Assembly: GCA_017409785.1 (NCBI GenBank) | Contig: JAFQSD010000004.1 | Coordinates: forward strand, 48,663 to 112,662 | Source: Bacilli bacterium | GTDB taxonomy: Bacteria > Bacillota_I > Bacilli_A > RF39 > UBA660 | Direction of reading: 5' to 3' | DNA length: 64,000 nucleotides | In this document: piece after piece, positions 3,087 to 52,300 of the stretch | How the letters are laid out: the number at the start of each line of letters is the position of its first letter | Numbering within the stretch: position 1 is the stretch's first letter | Position numbers and translations under genes: made by a program | Notes under the pieces: model-generated | Database searches by the model: none | Seen by the model: the letters and a program-made list of their open reading frames with translations, nothing else | What the model was told of the DNA's origin: nothing

Positions 3087-4043
3087 ATGGCAGATATAAG
3101 TATAATAGTTCCAATCTATAATGCAGAAAAATTTATAAAAAAATGTGTTGATTCATTACTAAACCAAACAAAGAAAGAATTAGAATTCATTTTAATTAAT
3201 GATGGTTCTACAGATAAGACTCATGATATTTTAAAAACATATAAAGATAAAAGAATAAAATATTTTAAAAATAAAAATCAAGGAATTGGTAAAACAAGAA
3301 ACTTTGGTATTGAAAAAGCAACTGGAAAATATATTATCTTTATCGATAGTGATGATTATATTGAACCAACAACATGTGAAGAACTATATAATAAAGCTAT
3401 TAAAGAAAAAGCTGACGTAGTAGTTTGTGATTTCTTTAAAGTCTATGATGATGGAAGTATTGAAGATATTAATCTACCAAGTTTTAAAACATCAAAATTA
3501 AAAGATAATCCAAATATTTTAATAGATATTAACTTATCTCCTTGGAATAAAATTTATAGTACAAAACTAATTAAAGATAATAATATTCGTTTTGCTGAAG
3601 GAATAAAATATGAAGATGTTCCATTTGTTTCAGAAGCTCTTGATAGAGCAAATAAAATAGCTAAACTAGATAAGAAATTAAATTATTATGTAATCCATGG
3701 TAATAGTGAAACAACAGTAAGAGATAAAAGAATCTTTGATATTCTAAAAATAGTTGATATGATTAGAAAGTATTTTAAAAATAAAACTTATATGAATGAT
3801 ATTGTAGATAAACTAACAGTTAGAATTGTAACTAATTATAATATCCAACAAAGACAACAAAAAGATATTAAAGTGGGTATGGAATTTATTGATGATGCTT
3901 TTGCTTATTTAAAGAAAGAAGTACCAGACTATAAAGATAATAAATACTATGAAAATAGAAGTTTTTTAAAACGAACAATTGAAAAAAATAAACTATTTTC
4001 AAAACTATATTGTCGTCTATATCACATGATTAAAAAATCATAA
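3087..4043 (+). CDS. family 2 glycosyltransferase (GT-A)
   Basis: ISIIVPIYNAEKFI...FILINDGSTD and the DXD motif FIDSDD. Confidence 0.8.
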   Translation: MADISIIVPIYNAEKFIKKCVDSLLNQTKKELEFILINDGSTDKTHDILKTYKDKRIKYFKNKNQGIGKTRNFGIEKATGKYIIFIDSDDYIEPTTCEELYNKAIKEKADVVVCDFFKVYDDGSIEDINLPSFKTSKLKDNPNILIDINLSPWNKIYSTKLIKDNNIRFAEGIKYEDVPFVSEALDRANKIAKLDKKLNYYVIHGNSETTVRDKRIFDILKIVDMIRKYFKNKTYMNDIVDKLTVRIVTNYNIQQRQQKDIKVGMEFIDDAFAYLKKEVPDYKDNKYYENRSFLKRTIEKNKLFSKLYCRLYHMIKKS

Positions 4044-44462: not shown

Positions 44463-45446
44463 ATGTTTAAAAAAATCGGAGTCTTTAAAGACTTTACTGA
44501 TGGTACTATAAAATGTGTTTATGAAAATAACACAAAGAAAGTGATAGAAATATCACTATTATTTAACAAAGAAGATAAAAATGTAGTGTGTGCACCAACT
44601 CATCATTTTTGTAATATGGGTTGTAAAATGTGTCATCTAACTAATAAAGGATTAAATAAAAAAATGAATCCAATTACACAAGAAGACTTTATGGCTGTCT
44701 TATTAGATGCTCTAAGTTATTTCAATAACTCTAAGAAAAAATTAATAATTTCTTTTATGGGAGTAGGAGAGCCATTACTTAATATAGATTTAATCAAAGA
44801 TATTTATCTAAATGAAAAACAAATTAAAGAAAAATATAATTATAGTGAAATAGGTTATGCTGTATCAACAATGATGCCTAATAGAAATGTTGATAGATTA
44901 ATTCAACTTGTTAATCTTTACAACATTCCATTAAAACTTCATTTCTCATTACATACACCAGACGATAAAAAAAGATATGACCTAATTCCAAATACTAAAG
45001 TAAGTATTGATGAAGCTATGCAACTACTAGAGTCATACAGAAGTGAAGTAATGAAAAACAAAAAAATAATGAAAAAGTATGAAAAACTTCATAGTACTAA
45101 TGATCCGGTTGAAATACATTATACTTTAATCAAAAATGTAAATGATAGTGATGATCTATTGAATAAATTAATTAAAATAGAAAAGAAATATCAAATATGT
45201 ATAAAGTTTATTCGCTTTAATCCAATCAATGAATTGGAAAGAAGTTCATCAGAAGAAAAATGGATAGAAACTTTATCAAAAGAGATACCAAACTTAAGAG
45301 TAAAATCATACTCACCTCCAGGTAGAGAAGTAGGTTCATCTTGTGGAGAATTTACTAAACATTATTATCATCAAGAAATAGAGACAGAAGAAGAATTACA
45401 AGAATTTTTAAAATGGAAAGAAAAACATGAACTAATAGAAGAATAG
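44463..45446 (+). CDS. RlmN/Cfr-family radical SAM enzyme, minimal form lacking the N-terminal accessory domain
   Basis: C-x6-CNMGCKMC (extra Cys plus CxxxCxxC), ISFMGVGEPLLN, HFSLHTPDD, CIKFIRFNP and a C-terminal GSSCGEF all align with RlmN blocks. Only about 43 aa precede the first Cys. Confidence 0.6.
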   Translation: MFKKIGVFKDFTDGTIKCVYENNTKKVIEISLLFNKEDKNVVCAPTHHFCNMGCKMCHLTNKGLNKKMNPITQEDFMAVLLDALSYFNNSKKKLIISFMGVGEPLLNIDLIKDIYLNEKQIKEKYNYSEIGYAVSTMMPNRNVDRLIQLVNLYNIPLKLHFSLHTPDDKKRYDLIPNTKVSIDEAMQLLESYRSEVMKNKKIMKKYEKLHSTNDPVEIHYTLIKNVNDSDDLLNKLIKIEKKYQICIKFIRFNPINELERSSSEEKWIETLSKEIPNLRVKSYSPPGREVGSSCGEFTKHYYHQEIETEEELQEFLKWKEKHELIEE

Positions 45447-45455
45447 GAGAATATT

Positions 45456-45791
45456 ATGCTAGAATTTTTATTTAACACAACAATGTCAGGAACTGCTTTA
45501 GTAGCTCCTCCATTTACAACAACAATGACCATAAGTGAAGATGGAAACAATGATGACTTAGCTACAACAACAGCAGCACTTTATACAACTACATCAGTAG
45601 GAGCAAGTATCTATATGAATATAGATGAGATAAAACAAGTATTTGATGCAATTGCTTGTTTAGAATCATATAGTCAATCTGAATTACAAGAATTAGACAA
45701 TTTACTCCAAGCTAAATCATTGGAATTTGATTTACCAGCACAAGAATTGCTTGATAAACCAAAAGTATTTATGAAAAACTATACAAAATAA
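45456..45791 (+). CDS. small acidic protein with Thr-rich N-terminus, unknown
   Basis: GGAG RBS, 9 nt after the radical SAM stop; 111 aa. Confidence 0.35.
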   Translation: MLEFLFNTTMSGTALVAPPFTTTMTISEDGNNDDLATTTAALYTTTSVGASIYMNIDEIKQVFDAIACLESYSQSELQELDNLLQAKSLEFDLPAQELLDKPKVFMKNYTK

Positions 45792-45836
45792 ATAATTTAT
45801 GTTATAATATGAAAGCGCTTAAGGGAGAGGAATATT

Positions 45837-46352
45837 ATGGCAGATTTAAGAGATATATATTTTGTAGTAGGAAAAAACTTATTTGAAAAAGATTTTGATC
45901 ATCAAACAACTGAACAAAAGAAAAAGTTAGTTGAAGGTTCGTTAAAAACATATGTAGCATCAAAAATAGTAAGAGAAAGTACTGAACAAGCATTTAAACT
46001 AAGTGAAAATCCAAATGTATCTTTAGATGAATTAGTTGAATTACTAGGTGAATTAATTCCTGAAGAAAAACATTTTGATACAATGAGACATTTAACTCAC
46101 TTTATGTTAAATATTGCTGGAGAAATGCAAGGTTGGTCAATTACTTGGTGGGATGAACAATTTATTGATAATCCATTAATTAAGTTTAATGAAGAAGGTA
46201 AAATTGATTCATTAACTACTCATAAATCATCATCATATGTACAAACTTTTAAATTTGTACATGACGTTTTTACAAGTTCATTTATGAATGAAAAAAATCA
46301 AAACAAACAATATACTTTGAAAGATACAAGAAAACAAGAAAGTAACGCTTAG
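45837..46352 (+). CDS. hypothetical protein
   Basis: RBS aagggagagg and its own TGtTATAAT promoter. Confidence 0.35.
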   Translation: MADLRDIYFVVGKNLFEKDFDHQTTEQKKKLVEGSLKTYVASKIVRESTEQAFKLSENPNVSLDELVELLGELIPEEKHFDTMRHLTHFMLNIAGEMQGWSITWWDEQFIDNPLIKFNEEGKIDSLTTHKSSSYVQTFKFVHDVFTSSFMNEKNQNKQYTLKDTRKQESNA

Positions 46353-46423
46353 TTGCTTTCTTTTCTTTTATTGAAAATAAAAGAAAAATATGTTAGTATA
46401 TAAGGCATTTAAGGGGGATATAT

Positions 46424-49354
46424 ATGAACTTTGAAATATTATTAAGTAAATTATTAAGACTGCCACTAAATAAAGCGTTAGATATATATAATGAGTATCT
46501 AAAAAATAATCAAGATAACTTTGCTAATAATTTACGCGCCTCAAACTTACTTATGGAAAAAACACAAACAAGAAAAAGAATTAAAGATGAATGTTTTGAA
46601 ACTGCACTTATGGCTTTGGCTTTCATGTCACAAAAGAAGAACCAATTAGCGGATATGATGCTTGAAGAGACAAAGCCATACCCTATGATTGTTTGGATGG
46701 AAGTAATAGGAGAAATGGATGATGAAGGAATAAAAGGTGTATTAAAAAATTATGCAGATAAATTACCTCCTCCAATAATTGAGACATTAATTTTAAATTT
46801 ATCAGAGTCAAAGCAAGCAGTAGCAATAAATAAGTATAAAAATAGATTGGATTCAAAAAGTGAAATGTTTTATTCATTTTATTTATGTTTATCTAAAGAA
46901 GCACAACAAGAACTTGATAGACTGACTAATAAAGCTGTAAAAGTAAATCCACTACTACAATTGAGTGATCAAGAACCGTCTCAAATAAAAAAAAGCTTAA
47001 TTGTAAATAAAGAATTATATAAAGAGATTCCAATGGATGATATTATTGAAGTTCTTTTATTAAATGTAAATTCATCAGAAGATATTTTTGACATATTAAA
47101 GACTTATGAAGATAGACAAACAGAAATATCTGATATGCGATTTAAATTATTAGTTGGTAGACTAAAAGTATTATTAAATGAAGAAACATATAACCATAGA
47201 TTTGAAAATGCAGAAGAAATATTTAATAAACTAAAATCTCGTTTTAAAAGATTAGGTTTAAAAGACTCACTTGCTATCTTAGATGCCAAAGTAGATGGTT
47301 ATTATTCTTGTGAACATGGTAATGAAATAATTTATGAATTTTTAGATATTGCATATGAAAACGAAAACCTAAGAGACTTTGTAAATGAAAAAACAATCTC
47401 AGCACTGGTTGAAAGATTTGTAAATGATTGCAGAAGTAAAGAATATACAGTTGAAGACTTCCGAAGATTAGTTGAAAAAACTACAACGACTAAGCCTTAT
47501 AAGTTAATAAAAGATGATTATATTGAAGCAATAATTGCCTGTGGTTCATTAATGAAAAACCACATAATATCAGATCAAGATCCTCATTTTTTAGAATTAC
47601 GTAGAAGATTTATTTCTATGCTAAATGATCAAGTAGAAAAAGATGGAACTTTAACAGAAGAAGTTAATTTCAATGGATTATTCTATCGTTTAATAAAAGG
47701 TAGTGTTGATTTTGATAAGGTCTTTAATACTAAAACATATAAAGGCTTAATATATCTAACAAAATCTGGACGAGTATTTAATAATCCAGACTTGATCACA
47801 AAATATTTATCAGACGAGCAAATAAGAAAATTAGATATATCACCAGTTCTACATTTAAAGAAAGAGCTAATTAATGAAGCTAATAGAAAACATAAAGAAG
47901 TAAAGCCTAATAGTGAATTAGATCCTCGCTATGCAGTATCAGATTTTAAAGAAAGAATGATGCTTCAATTACTTTGTTATTTTGGTGAAACTAGAGCAAG
48001 ACATATTATCAAATCAGCTATGAAACCAACTAGAATGGAAAACATTTTTGATAGTCTTAATTACAAAGATATTAAGATTGATGAAAATGGTAAACCAATT
48101 GTAAATCAAGAATTAGTTGATTTCTTATTCGGAAGAGGTAGTGTAGCAGAAAAGAACACAGTTATGAATAGAATAATTCGAGAAGAATTATTAGATTTCG
48201 GAAGATTTGTTCCTGAAATATGTAATAACTACGAAGAGGTAAAAAAAGCTTGTCATGGAATTATAACTGTAAAAAGAGCAATGGCTCATTTTGAAGATAT
48301 AGTTCTTCCTATTGAGTTAAAACCAAATGAACGAGAATTTAAACCGGCATTAAAAGAAATGCGTATTACTAAAGAAGATACTTTAGCCAAGGGAGTTTCC
48401 TTATGTCATGATGCCAAAAAAAGAACATCATCAACTATACCAAAAGTAAAAGGAAAATTAGGAGACTTTACATATGAAATACTAGATGTAAAAGATCCGT
48501 TTGCTTTAGCGGTAGGATACTTATCACATTGTTGTTTTGTTGTTGATGGTATTTCATATTCAGCATTAAAACATTCAATGCAATCTGTAAACGGAAGAAC
48601 ATTTGTTGTTTATCATAAAGGCAAATTTTTAACACAAAGTTGGATGTGGAGAAATGGCGATGTTGTTTGTTTCGACAGTGTTGAATCAGGAAGTAGTATT
48701 CATGGTGCCTACAATGATGATATAAAATTAGTAGATGTCTACAAACATGTCGCGGATGAAATAATGGATATTTCAAAATGTAATGAAACGGATGCAGAAA
48801 GAGTTAAAGTAGTCACAGTAGGGGCATCAGATTATATCTTCAAAGGACTACCACAAGTCGAAGGAAAAGTTCCAAGACCACAAGAAAGAGATGTATATGT
48901 TTACGATTCATCAACGCAAGGAATTCTTGCAGGAGAAATGCCTAAAAAGCCAAATTATGATCCTGTATCAATTAGATACAAAGACCCAAGAAAAAGAGTG
49001 CATAAGTTCTTAAGTATTGAAGAAGCAGATGTTGATGATTTAGATGAAGCATTATTAAAACTACAATCAATTAAATATGAGTCTACTGGTAGTGAAGAAG
49101 TAGAAGATATTACTACAATGAACCAACTATTTGTTGGCCAAGACTGGTATATAAAAACAACAAAAGATGGCACTGTCGAAGTAGAAATATTAGGTGAGGA
49201 AGATGCTTCACTTGAAGAATGTAAACGATATGCTGAACTGTTAGGAATAGAATTTGAAATGGAACACAAAGAATTAAATGATGGTTACCAATTATCAAAA
49301 GACGATGTAGTAAAACAGCTACGAAAGACAAAATTAGAAAGTAGGAGGGGATAA
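46424..49354 (+). CDS. large (976 aa) cytoplasmic protein of unknown function
   Basis: No P-loop or known nuclease motif is visible. The C-terminal third has a Cys/His/Asp-containing segment (..GYLSHCCFVVDG..VVYHKG..RNGDVV..). Strong RBS aaggggga. Confidence 0.5.
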   Translation: MNFEILLSKLLRLPLNKALDIYNEYLKNNQDNFANNLRASNLLMEKTQTRKRIKDECFETALMALAFMSQKKNQLADMMLEETKPYPMIVWMEVIGEMDDEGIKGVLKNYADKLPPPIIETLILNLSESKQAVAINKYKNRLDSKSEMFYSFYLCLSKEAQQELDRLTNKAVKVNPLLQLSDQEPSQIKKSLIVNKELYKEIPMDDIIEVLLLNVNSSEDIFDILKTYEDRQTEISDMRFKLLVGRLKVLLNEETYNHRFENAEEIFNKLKSRFKRLGLKDSLAILDAKVDGYYSCEHGNEIIYEFLDIAYENENLRDFVNEKTISALVERFVNDCRSKEYTVEDFRRLVEKTTTTKPYKLIKDDYIEAIIACGSLMKNHIISDQDPHFLELRRRFISMLNDQVEKDGTLTEEVNFNGLFYRLIKGSVDFDKVFNTKTYKGLIYLTKSGRVFNNPDLITKYLSDEQIRKLDISPVLHLKKELINEANRKHKEVKPNSELDPRYAVSDFKERMMLQLLCYFGETRARHIIKSAMKPTRMENIFDSLNYKDIKIDENGKPIVNQELVDFLFGRGSVAEKNTVMNRIIREELLDFGRFVPEICNNYEEVKKACHGIITVKRAMAHFEDIVLPIELKPNEREFKPALKEMRITKEDTLAKGVSLCHDAKKRTSSTIPKVKGKLGDFTYEILDVKDPFALAVGYLSHCCFVVDGISYSALKHSMQSVNGRTFVVYHKGKFLTQSWMWRNGDVVCFDSVESGSSIHGAYNDDIKLVDVYKHVADEIMDISKCNETDAERVKVVTVGASDYIFKGLPQVEGKVPRPQERDVYVYDSSTQGILAGEMPKKPNYDPVSIRYKDPRKRVHKFLSIEEADVDDLDEALLKLQSIKYESTGSEEVEDITTMNQLFVGQDWYIKTTKDGTVEVEILGEEDASLEECKRYAELLGIEFEMEHKELNDGYQLSKDDVVKQLRKTKLESRRG

Positions 49355-49355
49355 T

Positions 49356-50045
49356 ATGTTAATTGCTGAAAATATAAAACAACATTTAGCAGAAGCAACA
49401 ATATCAGGAAGAAGATATTATGAAGAACATCCTGAATGTCGTATTCATCATGAAGTTGCAGAATTAATCCCTGATGACATAGATGTTGATAATCTAATCA
49501 TTGCTTATAAAATATGTTTAGATAATTATGAAAAACATCAAGGAAACGTTTTACCATTTATTGCAACTATTCCTCAGTATGTTCGTAAAGGTACTACGCA
49601 AGAATTTGCTAAAGAATTTAGAAAAAAATATATTACAGATATTCTTGGACTACCACCACAACCAGAACTAGAAACAGACTATGGCTATGTAGAAACTGAA
49701 CCATATGTAATAGATATTTCTAATAAAAATAAATATGCCGTACTAGCAGCACTATATAACTATTCAACACCTTATGGTATGGGATTTGCTCAATATGATC
49801 CATATGCATGGGATGAAGAAATTGGTAAACTTGCATTTGAAAAATTTGGTGAAGTATTAGCTGACGGTTCTATTTTCTTTGGCTGGGTTCAAGGGCGACT
49901 AATGCGCTGTAAGTTTAAAGATAATTTAGTTTATGTTGAAGCATACAATCGTGAAAACATTGATGGACTAGGTCAATTAGCAGTAAGTTCTGTACCTAAT
50001 CTAAATCAAAAAGAAAAGCCTATTCAAAAAGTAAAAAAAGATTAA
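49356..50045 (+). CDS. hypothetical protein (229 aa)
   Basis: Starts 2 nt after the upstream stop, with RBS aggagggg. Confidence 0.4.
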   Translation: MLIAENIKQHLAEATISGRRYYEEHPECRIHHEVAELIPDDIDVDNLIIAYKICLDNYEKHQGNVLPFIATIPQYVRKGTTQEFAKEFRKKYITDILGLPPQPELETDYGYVETEPYVIDISNKNKYAVLAALYNYSTPYGMGFAQYDPYAWDEEIGKLAFEKFGEVLADGSIFFGWVQGRLMRCKFKDNLVYVEAYNRENIDGLGQLAVSSVPNLNQKEKPIQKVKKD

Positions 50046-50075
50046 TAATATGATATACTAAAAATGGTGAATAAA

Positions 50076-50702
50076 ATGATTAATCAAGACATCAAAAAAT
50101 ATATAGAAAAAAATATCTATCCAGAATATCAAAAAAATGATAGTGGTCATAACATAGACCACATTAAATATGTTTTAGAAAGAAGTTTAAAGTTTGCTAA
50201 AACAGTTCCAGATATTAATCTAGACATGGTATATGTAATTGCAGCATTTCATGATATTGGTCATCATATAGATGCTAAAAACCATGAACAAGTATCTTCA
50301 GAAATACTGGAAAAAGATGAATTCATCAAAGATTATTTTACAAAAGATGAACTTAAAACAATGGTAGAAGCAGTAGTTGATCACAGAGCTAGTTTAGAGT
50401 ATATTCCACGTTCAATTTATGGAAAAATAGTCTCATCAGCAGATAGAAATACTGATATAGATATTCCTCTAAAACGTACATATTCTTATCGTTTAGAGCA
50501 TTTTCCAAATGCTACATTAGATGAAATCATTGAAGAATCACGTCAACATATTATTGATAAGTTTGGTTCAAATGGCTATGCCAAAGATAAAATATATTTT
50601 GAGGATGAAGATTATAATAATTTCTTAAAAGAAGTAGAATTATTCGCAGAAGATAAAGAACTTTTTAGAAAAAGATTTATTGAAGTAAATAATATTAAAT
50701 AA
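50076..50702 (+). CDS. HD-domain phosphohydrolase (YpgQ/YedJ-like small HD protein)
   Basis: H..H...AAFHDIGH...DHR...SSADR motif spacing of the HD superfamily; start taken at the second ATG. Confidence 0.6.
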   Translation: MINQDIKKYIEKNIYPEYQKNDSGHNIDHIKYVLERSLKFAKTVPDINLDMVYVIAAFHDIGHHIDAKNHEQVSSEILEKDEFIKDYFTKDELKTMVEAVVDHRASLEYIPRSIYGKIVSSADRNTDIDIPLKRTYSYRLEHFPNATLDEIIEESRQHIIDKFGSNGYAKDKIYFEDEDYNNFLKEVELFAEDKELFRKRFIEVNNIK

Positions 50703-50718
50703 CAAAGTAGGTGATACA

Positions 50719-51318
50719 ATGTCCAAAATAAGTAATGTCCTAACTTTTATGCAATACTTAAGTACAGGTAAAAAATATAGTATTCAAGAATTATCTGAAA
50801 AATTAGAAGTATCACCACGTATGATTAGAGTCTATAAAGAAGAACTAGAAAAAGCAGGAATTTATGTAGATACAATAATGGGTCCATATGGAGGATATGT
50901 CTTAAATCAATCTATTAGAATGCCTGTTAGAAAATTTAAAAAGAAAGATTATGAACTACTAGAAAAATATATCAGTGAAGAAAAAGATTTAGATAGAAAA
51001 GAAAAATTAATTCTATTAAAAGATAAGATTCAAGGAGTATATGCAGGTAGTAAACAAGAAGCACGTGAGTTAAATCTAAAAGATGAAACTCAAAGTAAAT
51101 ATAATTTACTAACACGTGCCATCAAAGAAAGAAAAAAAGTAAAAATATTATATTATTCTTATAATAAAGGAGAAAATGAAAGAGTCATATGTCCAGCAGA
51201 AATGTTTTTATTTCAAGATGGTTGGTATGTCGCAGCATTCTGTCTTGTAAAGAATGATATCCGTCATTTTGAATTAAAAAGAATAATAAAATATGAATTA
51301 TTAAATGAAACTTTTTAA
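50719..51318 (+). CDS. HTH-WYL domain transcriptional regulator
   Basis: N-terminal HTH (YSIQELSEKLEVSPRMIRVYKEELEKAGI) and C-terminal WYL core (FQDGWYVAAFCLVKNDIRHFELKRI). Confidence 0.6.
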   Translation: MSKISNVLTFMQYLSTGKKYSIQELSEKLEVSPRMIRVYKEELEKAGIYVDTIMGPYGGYVLNQSIRMPVRKFKKKDYELLEKYISEEKDLDRKEKLILLKDKIQGVYAGSKQEARELNLKDETQSKYNLLTRAIKERKKVKILYYSYNKGENERVICPAEMFLFQDGWYVAAFCLVKNDIRHFELKRIIKYELLNETF

Positions 51319-51332
51319 GTAGACTAAATACT

Positions 51333-51376
51333 TCCTACTCAAGTGCTACTATGTACTTGAAAGGAAGTGTTTTTTT
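51333..51376 (+). terminator. compound hairpin terminator
   Basis: acttcc...caagtgctactatgtacttg...ggaagt followed by a T7 run. Confidence 0.45.
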
Positions 51377-52300
51377 ATGAAACCAAACATGCATGATAAT
51401 TTTAAATTACTTGAAGAAAGAGTATTAGACTCTTTAGAAAAAACAGACTTAGAAAGGATTAAATATCATCTAGAAAGAATAAAAACACCAACGATAACAA
51501 CAGGAGTAGGTGGTTCAAGTGTAGCAAGTAATTTTGCAGCTAAAGTACTAAGTACCAAGAATGGTATAATAGCAGAACACCAAGAACCACGTGATATGTT
51601 ATATAAGCCACTACAAGGATATGACAATGTATTAGCTTGTAGTTATGGTGGAAGAAACTATGGAGTAAAAACATCATTTGCCAATGATTTAAATAAGTAC
51701 TTACTATCAAGAAATATATCTGATAATGAAGGAGTAAATAATTTAACTTATGATGCTTCTTTACCGGATGAAGATAGTTTTATCTCATTAGCCGCAACAC
51801 TTATGCCAATGAGTGTAATGCTAGCATATTATAATGATAATGATATTTCAGTAATAAAAGAAATTTTAGAAACAGCAAGAAAATATAATGTTAATATAGA
51901 TAAAGTATATGAAATATTAACTGGCTATGACACATCAACTGCATCAATCTATTTAGATTCAACTTTGGCTGAAGCGGGATTAGCATCACCTGTGGTTCAT
52001 GATAAATATTCAATGTGTCATGGTAGAACAACTCTCTCATACCATCATGACCACTCCTTAATTCATCTAGATAGAGGTACCGAATTAGATAAACTATATA
52101 AAGAGGAACTACCACAATATTACAACGGAGTAATAACTCTTGAGGGTAAGTTTGATGATCCAATAGTGGATGACTTTTATCTAACATATCAAGCAATGCT
52201 TTTATCAAAAGCAATGGCAGAATCTAAGGGTAGAGACCTATCTAGAATGGCATATTCCCCAGCAGTAAAAAAACTATATCGCTATAGTGGCGAAATGTAG
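51377..52300 (+). CDS. SIS-domain-like protein, putative
   Basis: TGVGGSSVASNFAAKVLS resembles the SIS phosphosugar-binding loop (compare GmhA GNGGSAADAQHFAAE). The assignment is weak. Confidence 0.3.
   Translation: MKPNMHDNFKLLEERVLDSLEKTDLERIKYHLERIKTPTITTGVGGSSVASNFAAKVLSTKNGIIAEHQEPRDMLYKPLQGYDNVLACSYGGRNYGVKTSFANDLNKYLLSRNISDNEGVNNLTYDASLPDEDSFISLAATLMPMSVMLAYYNDNDISVIKEILETARKYNVNIDKVYEILTGYDTSTASIYLDSTLAEAGLASPVVHDKYSMCHGRTTLSYHHDHSLIHLDRGTELDKLYKEELPQYYNGVITLEGKFDDPIVDDFYLTYQAMLLSKAMAESKGRDLSRMAYSPAVKKLYRYSGEM

Follow-up and report, generated by a model that had tools for sequence, protein, structure and literature searches.

The stretch of DNA analysed here, in full hereafter the window, comprises 64,000 nucleotides (nt) of a Bacilli bacterium genome (assembly GCA_017409785.1, contig JAFQSD010000004.1, positions 48,663 to 112,662). 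It contains four closely packed genes between positions 46424 and 51318, and the question raised by this locus is whether the four genes act together. They encode a soluble acidic protein of 976 amino acids without any match in family libraries (gene 1, g1; 46424-49354), a protein of 229 amino acids with an N-terminal helical and a C-terminal alpha/beta domain (gene 2, g2; 49356-50045), an HD-domain phosphohydrolase of 212 amino acids (50064-50702) and a helix-turn-helix (HTH) WYL regulator of 199 amino acids with an isoelectric point (pI) of 9.3 (50719-51318). An earlier note on this DNA had proposed that they form a single defence or stress operon controlled by the WYL protein. We found that g1 is conserved as a unit with g2, and the WYL gene with the following gene (51377-52300), which encodes a 307-amino-acid protein without a family match (p307) and is outside the span considered in that note. 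On balance, we think it somewhat probable that the four-gene string consists of separate units that adjoin one another in a compact genome, g1-g2 being a two-subunit transferase-like module; our confidence in this whole package comes mostly from the modular dissection of the locus and less from the proposed chemistry. The genes, domains and signals of the window located between 46336 and 52300 are on the + strand.

Homologues of g1 and g2, counted in a collection of 5.8 billion proteins, formed 54 and 25 clusters, respectively, none of which had a Pfam domain or a name. In 26 g1-g2 loci taken from metagenomes and 185,579 species genomes a g2 homologue was found, without exception, within a few bases of the g1 stop codon, which bears out the earlier view that the two genes belong together. 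The identities of the g1 and g2 homologues to the window proteins co-varied (r = 0.92, n = 26 loci, uncorrected for phylogeny). HD, WYL and p307 followed the pair in only three of these loci (L005, L007 and L010), whose surroundings match those of the window throughout, from an APH-like kinase gene upstream as far as phosphoribosyl pyrophosphate (PRPP) synthetase and LysR; in the remaining 23 loci neither HD nor WYL adjoins the pair. Missing co-occurrence with the WYL gene in other genomes had been named in the earlier note as a refuting observation, and this is what was found. This pattern does not support the assignment of the four genes to one WYL-controlled operon, and it justifies the caution, expressed at the same time, that the HD gene might be unrelated.

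The WYL gene is far commoner and more conserved than the pair: 2737 homologues were found, versus 54 and 25, and there were more than 100 clusters with 76-97% identity among the matches listed. In loci L045-L047, where the WYL protein is 77-82% identical to that of the window, the upstream gene is HisRS or another gene, g1-g2 is absent and there is no adjacent HD gene. A p307 homologue (56-63% identical) follows WYL directly in L046 and L047, and past one inserted PDDEXK_2 gene in L045, in which a 45%-identical HD homologue is located about 7 kb away on the other strand. L046 retains APH, PRPP synthetase and a homologue of p171, the 171-amino-acid protein encoded upstream of g1, with the slot of g1-g2-HD filled by an ABC transporter and a two-component system. 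The WYL-p307 linkage was conserved in the six related loci examined, whatever was upstream. When the window was compared with L007, proteins of the flanks (the radical-SAM protein, HD, WYL, p307, LysR and PRPP synthetase) were 71-92% identical, as opposed to 52% for g1 and 46% for g2. Taking into account these linkage patterns, the conserved units are g1+g2 and WYL+p307, HD is a lineage-specific neighbour, and the g1-g2 pair occupies a variable slot.

Tight packing had been regarded as a sign of an operon. The four co-directional open reading frames (ORFs) are located as described before, with the correction that the first gap is 1 nt rather than 2 nt long; the other two gaps are 18 and 16 nt. 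The gaps between co-directional genes of the window have a median of 33.5 nt, and 44% of them are not longer than 20 nt, so the spacing is not distinctive. Tight packing beside a WYL regulator in a compact genome is thus no evidence of a regulated defence operon.

The sequence upstream of g1 is consistent with a promoter belonging to the pair. A terminator-like hairpin at the end of the p171 ORF (46336-46362, an 11-pair stem followed by a T-run), whose sequence is kept in L005 and L010, is taken to mark the start of a new transcription unit before g1. A promoter-like site (46371-46399) consists of TTGAAA, a 17-nt spacer and a TG-extended TAGTAT. The -35 element GTTGAAAA and the extended -10 element ATGTTAKTATA are common to the window, L005, L007 and L010, even where the upstream gene is different, and the consensus before g1 in all four syntenic genomes is TTGAAAA, 17 nt, TGTTAKTATA. 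An AT-rich palindrome over the -35 element was considered as a candidate WYL operator and was dropped because it is not conserved in the relatives. The strong ribosome-binding site (RBS) ascribed to g1 is present; it is G-rich (AAGGGGGAT) and located 5-6 nt ahead of the ATG. The RBS of g2 (AGGAGGGG) is embedded in the last codons of g1, and translation of g2 is probably coupled to that of g1.

In the HD gene, the second ATG (50076, MINQD...) is preceded at a distance of 5 nt by a GGTGA RBS, and the orthologues in L005 and L007 are 208 and 209 amino acids long. Since both of these fit a start at 50076, this would be the more likely start rather than 50064. The spacer between g2 and HD contains TGATATACT, which resembles an extended -10 element, and in L007 the corresponding spacer is 172 nt long with a putative extended -10 element (TGCTATAAT). 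After the WYL gene a compound terminator had been described. A hairpin with 11-nt arms and a 25-nt loop followed by a T-run does exist between WYL and p307 (51326-51376), but it was not called by the terminator scan and it overlaps the next RBS: its 3' arm doubles as the RBS of p307, whose start (51377) is 58 nt past the WYL stop codon.

Pfam, NCBIfam, PHROGs and PADLOC were scanned with the four proteins and p307. Neither g1 nor g2 had a match in these libraries or among PDB sequences, in agreement with the earlier description of both as novel and uncharacterised, and no description of the two families was found in the literature. PDB sequence searches, single and profile, with g1, the g1 core domain, g2 and the phage-type C-terminal domain of g2 (g2-C, see below) gave nothing significant. 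When Pfam was run on 45 close and 40 distant relatives of g1, only sporadic chance or repeat matches were obtained (EF-hand_7, LRR_5 once and DUF4116 once). No g1 paralogue is present elsewhere in the window.

An AlphaFold2 (AF2) model of g1 (45 homologues; mean predicted local distance difference test score 88.7, predicted template modelling score 0.76) consists of an all-helical, solenoid-like region (residues 1-665; 46424-48418), a conserved core domain with GNAT-like topology (residues 670-870; 48431-49033) and a small C-terminal beta-beta-beta-alpha domain (residues ~895-945; 49106-49258). The last of these, folded as such between residues 899 and 940, carries a conserved G..DWY motif, which occurs also in the type B paralogue L028 (see below). 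The order of secondary structure elements in residues 676-837 is b-b-a-a-b-b-b-a-b...b. In comparison with the GNAT core (b1-a1-a2-b2-b3-b4-a3-b5-a4-b6), all elements are present in the model but a4, which is replaced by a coil (803-832). A Foldseek search with the model returned the GNATs PaiA, SACOL1063 and GCN5 with probabilities of 0.8-0.91, target-normalised template modelling scores of 0.40-0.52 and non-significant E-values. Weak as these scores are, GNATs were the sole recurring alpha/beta fold match, and they must map to the core domain because the one sizeable beta-sheet of g1 is located there.

In one lineage (L003:10001-12883, L004 and L021) g1 is split into abutting ORFs of 618 and 341 amino acids. 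The break falls just ahead of the core domain, and therefore supports its boundary; since the same split was found in several assemblies made independently, it is probably genuine and not an error of sequencing.

The C-terminal Cys-His-Asp segment of g1 had been suggested to be a papain- or transglutaminase-like triad. All three strings (SHCCFVVDG, VVYHKG and RNGDVV) were confirmed in the sequence, but the triad is not conserved, C704 alone being invariant: relatives have T, D, N, R or G in place of H702, the close-homologue consensus has Y in place of H731, the wider family often has N, G or another residue in place of D746, and even H717 gives way to Y or Q in some members. The fold predicted by AF2 and Foldseek is GNAT-like and not papain-like. 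A resemblance of the CC...H motif to PcfJ-like proteins was not borne out, as there was no such Pfam match.

Fourteen residues (S670, P673, Y684, C704, R725, S739, W740, W742, R743, C749, D751, E754, G800 and P819) are invariant across members that are 29-45% identical to the window domain. The invariant residues were placed in the a1-a2 loop and in b2-b4, with G800 on b5. GNAT active sites are located in this part of the fold (a1-a2 loop, b2-b5). Because the invariant residues occupy the same part, we infer that an active site is to be favoured over a pseudo-enzyme, and their invariance at identities as low as about 29% speaks for a functional site in the predicted core. Nevertheless, we describe the modelled core as a divergent GNAT-like domain rather than as a member of a GNAT family, because a4 is missing and there is no Q/RxxGxG/A motif after b4. 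The invariant cysteines (C704, C749) and the WxWR motif of g1 are not known from any GNAT family.

The C-terminal domain of g2 (g2-C; residues ~110-215; 49683-50000) is also found as a stand-alone protein of about 90 amino acids in phages and on megaplasmids, the homology covering residues ~118-213. The shared motif is DIS.K..VLAALYN.S.P.GMGF..Y.P...GR...YN/D.R.N.G, and the consensus of the phage family is MIDI.GL.KA.VLAALYN.S.PQGMGFLH..P.PMT.EEA...L.....YFDYL.GRVMKVDLS.D....W.YDRDNG.GAA.RAI. Homologues were detected in the temperate Dulem virus 39 (L049:6001-6297; 98 amino acids, in the early region between SSB and SMC/RecT), in Streptomyces phage Gilgamesh (gp28; L051:2983-3309), in several Xanthomonas phages, on Priestia and Pseudomonas megaplasmids and in 55 IMG/VR viral contigs (L053-L107; median ORF length 99 amino acids). 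All members of this phage and megaplasmid family are annotated as hypothetical, and a profile of the family found no solved structure in the PDB. Since g2-C stands alone in phages while g1-like proteins are nearly absent there, and a distant g2 homologue lacks an adjoining g1 (see below), g2 seems to combine a helical adaptor specific to g1 with a small, widely used domain that has a function of its own. A viral protein of 305 amino acids (L098:~3120-4040; IMG/VR, JGI metagenome 3300006145) has an N-terminal P-loop (GKSGSGKST) fused to a g2-C-type domain that starts at residue ~206; the same metagenome is the source of the g1-g2 locus L008.

The g1 family is part of a larger group. A g1 profile search in 1.84 billion representative proteins yielded 945 clusters (at 50% identity) with E <= 1e-3, 121 of them at 1e-30. 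The members are 700-1900 amino acids long and share mainly profile positions ~580-940, with a core at ~640-800. At least two fixed two-gene architectures were distinguished. In type A, represented by the window, g1 is followed by g2. In type B, a protein combining ankyrin repeats with a single-ring, Hsp100 D1-like AAA+ module is followed by a g1-like protein of 880-990 amino acids. This order was seen in 12 of 14 loci (L027-L040), with remnants in a thirteenth. The ATPase partner has about 520 amino acids, a marginal ankyrin-repeat match and an Hsp100 module with E of about 1e-36 (ClpB/ClpA 3e-36; ClpC). The type B g1-like proteins (e.g. L028:4939-9434) are 23-27% identical to g1 over residues ~377-920 and occur without g2. 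As genomic context, the unfoldase-type ATPase partner suggests that the family may act on proteins. No g2-like domain was found fused to a g1-like protein among those sampled, and g1-like proteins were detected in one viral contig and in no phage or plasmid record. Giant relatives of 1340-1800 amino acids (1382-1799 in L041:4071-9467, L043:4947-9092 and L044:4392-9155), which are still more distant, share only the C-terminal core; their N-termini contain repeats with the motif (L/F)F(L/I)xxDAPxELKxxFY, and their neighbours are tRNA-synthetase and cell-wall genes.

Combining these observations, g1 and g2 would constitute one two-gene module with a conserved promoter of its own. The g1 protein would be cytoplasmic, with an extended scaffold of helices that leads into a GNAT-fold domain of strongly divergent sequence at the C-terminus, and g2 is predicted to associate with it as a dedicated small subunit. 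The two would form a transferase-like enzyme of the acyl- or aminoacyl-transfer type acting on a protein or another macromolecular substrate. The helical region of g1 could hold the substrate, g2 could serve as adaptor, regulator or substrate, and the donor would probably be bound otherwise than in the canonical acetyl-CoA manner. HD would be a YedJ-like phosphohydrolase that is a neighbour in this lineage only, and HTH-WYL with p307 would be the truly conserved regulator-containing pair, located in the conserved flank of the variable slot.

Several observations weigh against this interpretation. The acetyl-CoA motif Q/RxxGxG/A was not found in the g1 family, in which the loop after CFD(S/N)(V/I)E varies in length and sequence and has no Gly pattern; the beta4-alpha3 loop is variable in length, and helix alpha4 is absent from the AF2 model. 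For these reasons the core domain could be a pseudo-enzyme or have a different chemistry. None of 85 family members (45 close, E up to 1; 40 distant, E up to 1e-3) had an Acetyltransf match in Pfam, and the core profile matched no PDB sequence. One full-length homologue of g2, the most distant of all (P0079), occurs without an adjoining g1. Finally, since no terminator or hairpin was found between them, the four genes may still be co-transcribed in this genome.

Among the alternatives, the one that survives best is that g1-g2 alone is a conflict system, directed against phages or mobile elements or resembling a toxin-antitoxin pair, with g1 as the effector, g2 as the sensor or inhibitor, and the phage g2-C proteins as decoys or counter-defence. 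The pair is located in a slot whose content differs between related genomes, diverges faster than its flanks (see the comparison with L007 above) and is far rarer than the core genes of the lineage, all of which would fit such a role. A few neighbours match candidate defence models (e.g. PDC-S01 and mad2/3), but PADLOC had no match for g1 or g2, and the 137 neighbour proteins in 13 loci are heterogeneous and mainly housekeeping (S2, EF-Ts, FtsW, MraW, ThyX/Tmk, tRNA synthetases), with no integrases and no recurrent defence genes; the defence-island setting that the earlier note asked about was not found. The frequency of g2-C as a phage protein of about 90 amino acids (55 IMG/VR loci, named phages and megaplasmids) also favours a conflict, but the hosts of the phage homologues (Streptomyces, Xanthomonas, Priestia) are far outside the range of g1, which suggests that g2-C has a role independent of g1, and viral contigs, phages and plasmids contain practically no g1-like proteins. 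We regard a conflict system as possible, though rather unlikely.

It is doubtful that g1 is a non-catalytic scaffold, whose C-terminal pseudo-enzyme domain would serve for binding, for example of g2, and that the pair has a lineage-specific housekeeping role. The missing acetyl-CoA-binding motif and helix alpha4 agree with this idea, as does the fact that two thirds of g1 is a helical repeat and that relatives carry other repeat modules (LRR_5, DUF4116, FLxxDAPxELKxxFY). However, the persistence of C704, C749, D751, E754, R725 and R743 to about 29% identity would be expected of an active site or a metal site more than of a surface used for binding alone. Similarly, the chromosomal position of the loci beside ribosomal, tRNA-synthetase and cell-division genes would suit a housekeeping role, but the patchy distribution argues against a core one. 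With about the same reservation we mention a much broader proposal, in which the g1-like proteins of gut Firmicutes (about 945 clusters) would constitute a novel class of enzymes that modify proteins by Cys-dependent chemistry on a GNAT fold and have interchangeable partners, either a g2-type subunit or an ankyrin/Hsp100-type unfoldase, g2-C would be a hitherto unrecognised ligand- or protein-binding module used by phages as a protein of about 90 amino acids, and g1-g2 would be a novel system of protein tagging or of conflict between host and phage, with a mimic encoded by phages; in this form we consider it improbable.

The reading from which the question arose, namely that a WYL protein sensing a nucleic-acid-derived ligand de-represses the large protein, its partner and an HD effector in one operon, is very unlikely and is largely refuted by co-occurrence, as co-directional genes with short, hairpin-free intervals, one good promoter (ahead of g1), a full-length match of the regulator to the CRISPR-associated WYL model of PADLOC and an arrangement kept in L005, L007 and L010 are opposed by the 23 g1-g2 loci without HD and WYL, by the far more widespread WYL gene tied to p307, by spacing that is the norm in this genome, by the long spacer with promoter-like sequence before HD in L007 and by the absence of a convincing PADLOC match for g1, g2 and HD and of a CRISPR repeat array in the window.

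The family assignments of the third and fourth genes were confirmed. The WYL protein matched HTH_11 (30.7 bits) and PF13280 WYL (60.9 bits, E 1.2e-16), both above the cutoffs, as well as the PADLOC model mentioned above (1.4e-30), and the WYL region of PafBC was matched in the PDB. One of its homologues is labelled Candidatus Coprovivens, an uncultured gut Bacilli genus. Judged from its homologues, the conservation pattern of the protein is that of a core regulator of the lineage. For p307 there was no match in Pfam, NCBIfam, PHROGs, PADLOC or PDB sequences; from its linkage, it is probably the real functional partner or target of the WYL regulator. The two-gene ARPP-WYL neighbourhoods mentioned in PMC9503650 are a possible lead for p307.

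The HD protein is, as stated in the earlier note, a small HD phosphohydrolase: PF01966 was matched above the cutoff (E 1.7e-7, 32 bits versus 22), and the H...HD...D ligands are visible in the sequence (HNIDH, FHDIGH, DH). A likeness to YpgQ had also been suggested, but no YpgQ structure was present among the PDB sequence matches at E <= 0.01; the sole PDB sequence relative was E. coli YedJ (3gw7, 8e-5). YedJ-type enzymes resemble the HD protein in the H...HD...D pattern and in their size of about 210 amino acids, and the NCBIfam model PRK10119 was matched with 1.6e-7, far below its cutoff. The best profile was phrog_3921 (6e-31), which has no assigned function in PHROGs, and PADLOC gave only a marginal SspB match (6e-4). 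Homologues with about 30% identity and 80-90% coverage occur in jumbo phages (~240 kb) of Erwinia, Salmonella and Vibrio, and a 34%-identical homologue was found in a human faecal phage contig.

With a GC content of about 27% the window is GC-poor, and nearly all of its genes are on the + strand. Chromosomal-type genes surround the pair (AdhE, a PRPP-synthetase-like protein, a LysR regulator, radical-SAM enzymes, an ABC transporter and TyrRS). A phage or plasmid origin of the window was rejected, as megablast of the region against phage and plasmid collections gave no match; tblastn of the g1 core against phage and plasmid records was also negative. An alternative genetic code was rejected as well: the long ORFs are intact under table 11 and Trp is encoded by TGG. 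In 41 long ORFs the stop codons were TAA (32), TAG (8) and TGA (1); since the ORFs are intact, the rarity of TGA is a matter of codon bias rather than recoding. The g2 and p307 proteins have been deposited in exactly this form as hypothetical proteins of "MAG: Bacilli bacterium" (MBQ2910530.1 and MBQ2910533.1). Upstream of g1 (44463-46352), a radical-SAM protein of 327 amino acids is followed by two small acidic ORFs without a family match, one of 111 amino acids (pI 4.05) and p171 (pI 5.4). The divergence of p171 is as rapid as that of g1 and g2 (42% identity in L007), and a p171 homologue is retained in L046, which is without g1-g2. The GC content of the g1-g2 loci is 22-30% with one exception. 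Most of the loci are assigned to uncultured Bacilli, and mis-binning probably accounts for the few bins labelled otherwise. The exception in GC content is L023 (CAYYLF010000015.1), a locus with 42% GC binned as Muribaculaceae; it may reflect either genuine transfer into another host or chimeric binning.

The locus thus provides a strictly linked gene pair and a large superfamily that is not covered by curated libraries, from uncultured gut Bacilli with reduced genomes. Its notable features are a putative active site, conserved and placed on a fold resembling that of acetyltransferases, alternative partners and a partner domain that is widespread in phages. If the domain is catalytically active, it would represent a new branch of GNAT-fold chemistry and provide an entry point to the "dark" genes of abundant gut bacteria; a new conflict system would be indicated if the phage link is functional.

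Comparison with known systems shows where the locus departs from them. Among HTH-WYL regulated defence systems, BrxR-BREX, CapW-CBASS and the CRISPR-associated WYL1 resemble it in having an HTH-WYL protein at the edge of the cluster, here one that matches a PADLOC WYL model. In contrast to the BrxR and CapW systems, the WYL protein of the window co-occurs with the cluster in one syntenic lineage only, and, as judged from its length of 199 amino acids and the domain coordinates, it is without the C-terminal WCX extension. Toxin-antitoxin systems of the TacT/AtaT type have a small canonical GNAT toxin, unlike g1, which has 976 amino acids and no GNAT profile match, and their partner is an upstream ribbon-helix-helix (RHH) or DUF1778 protein, whereas g2 is located downstream, has 229 amino acids and matches neither RHH nor DUF1778. 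As compared to the GNAT superfamily (GCN5, PaiA, Naa40, RimI), the g1 core is without a sequence-profile match, the pyrophosphate motif and alpha4, is fused to a helical region of 665 residues and has a dedicated partner gene. GNAT-fold transferases without the acetyl-CoA motif do exist, namely FemA/FemX, Leu/Phe-tRNA-protein transferase and ATE1/Bpt of the N-degron pathway. Pfam found no transferase family in any of the g1 members scanned at the thresholds given above, and the relation of g1 to the FemA/FemX and ATE1/Bpt-type enzymes would be one of functional analogy only, not of membership; extending the analogy to a tRNA dependence of g1 would be pure speculation.

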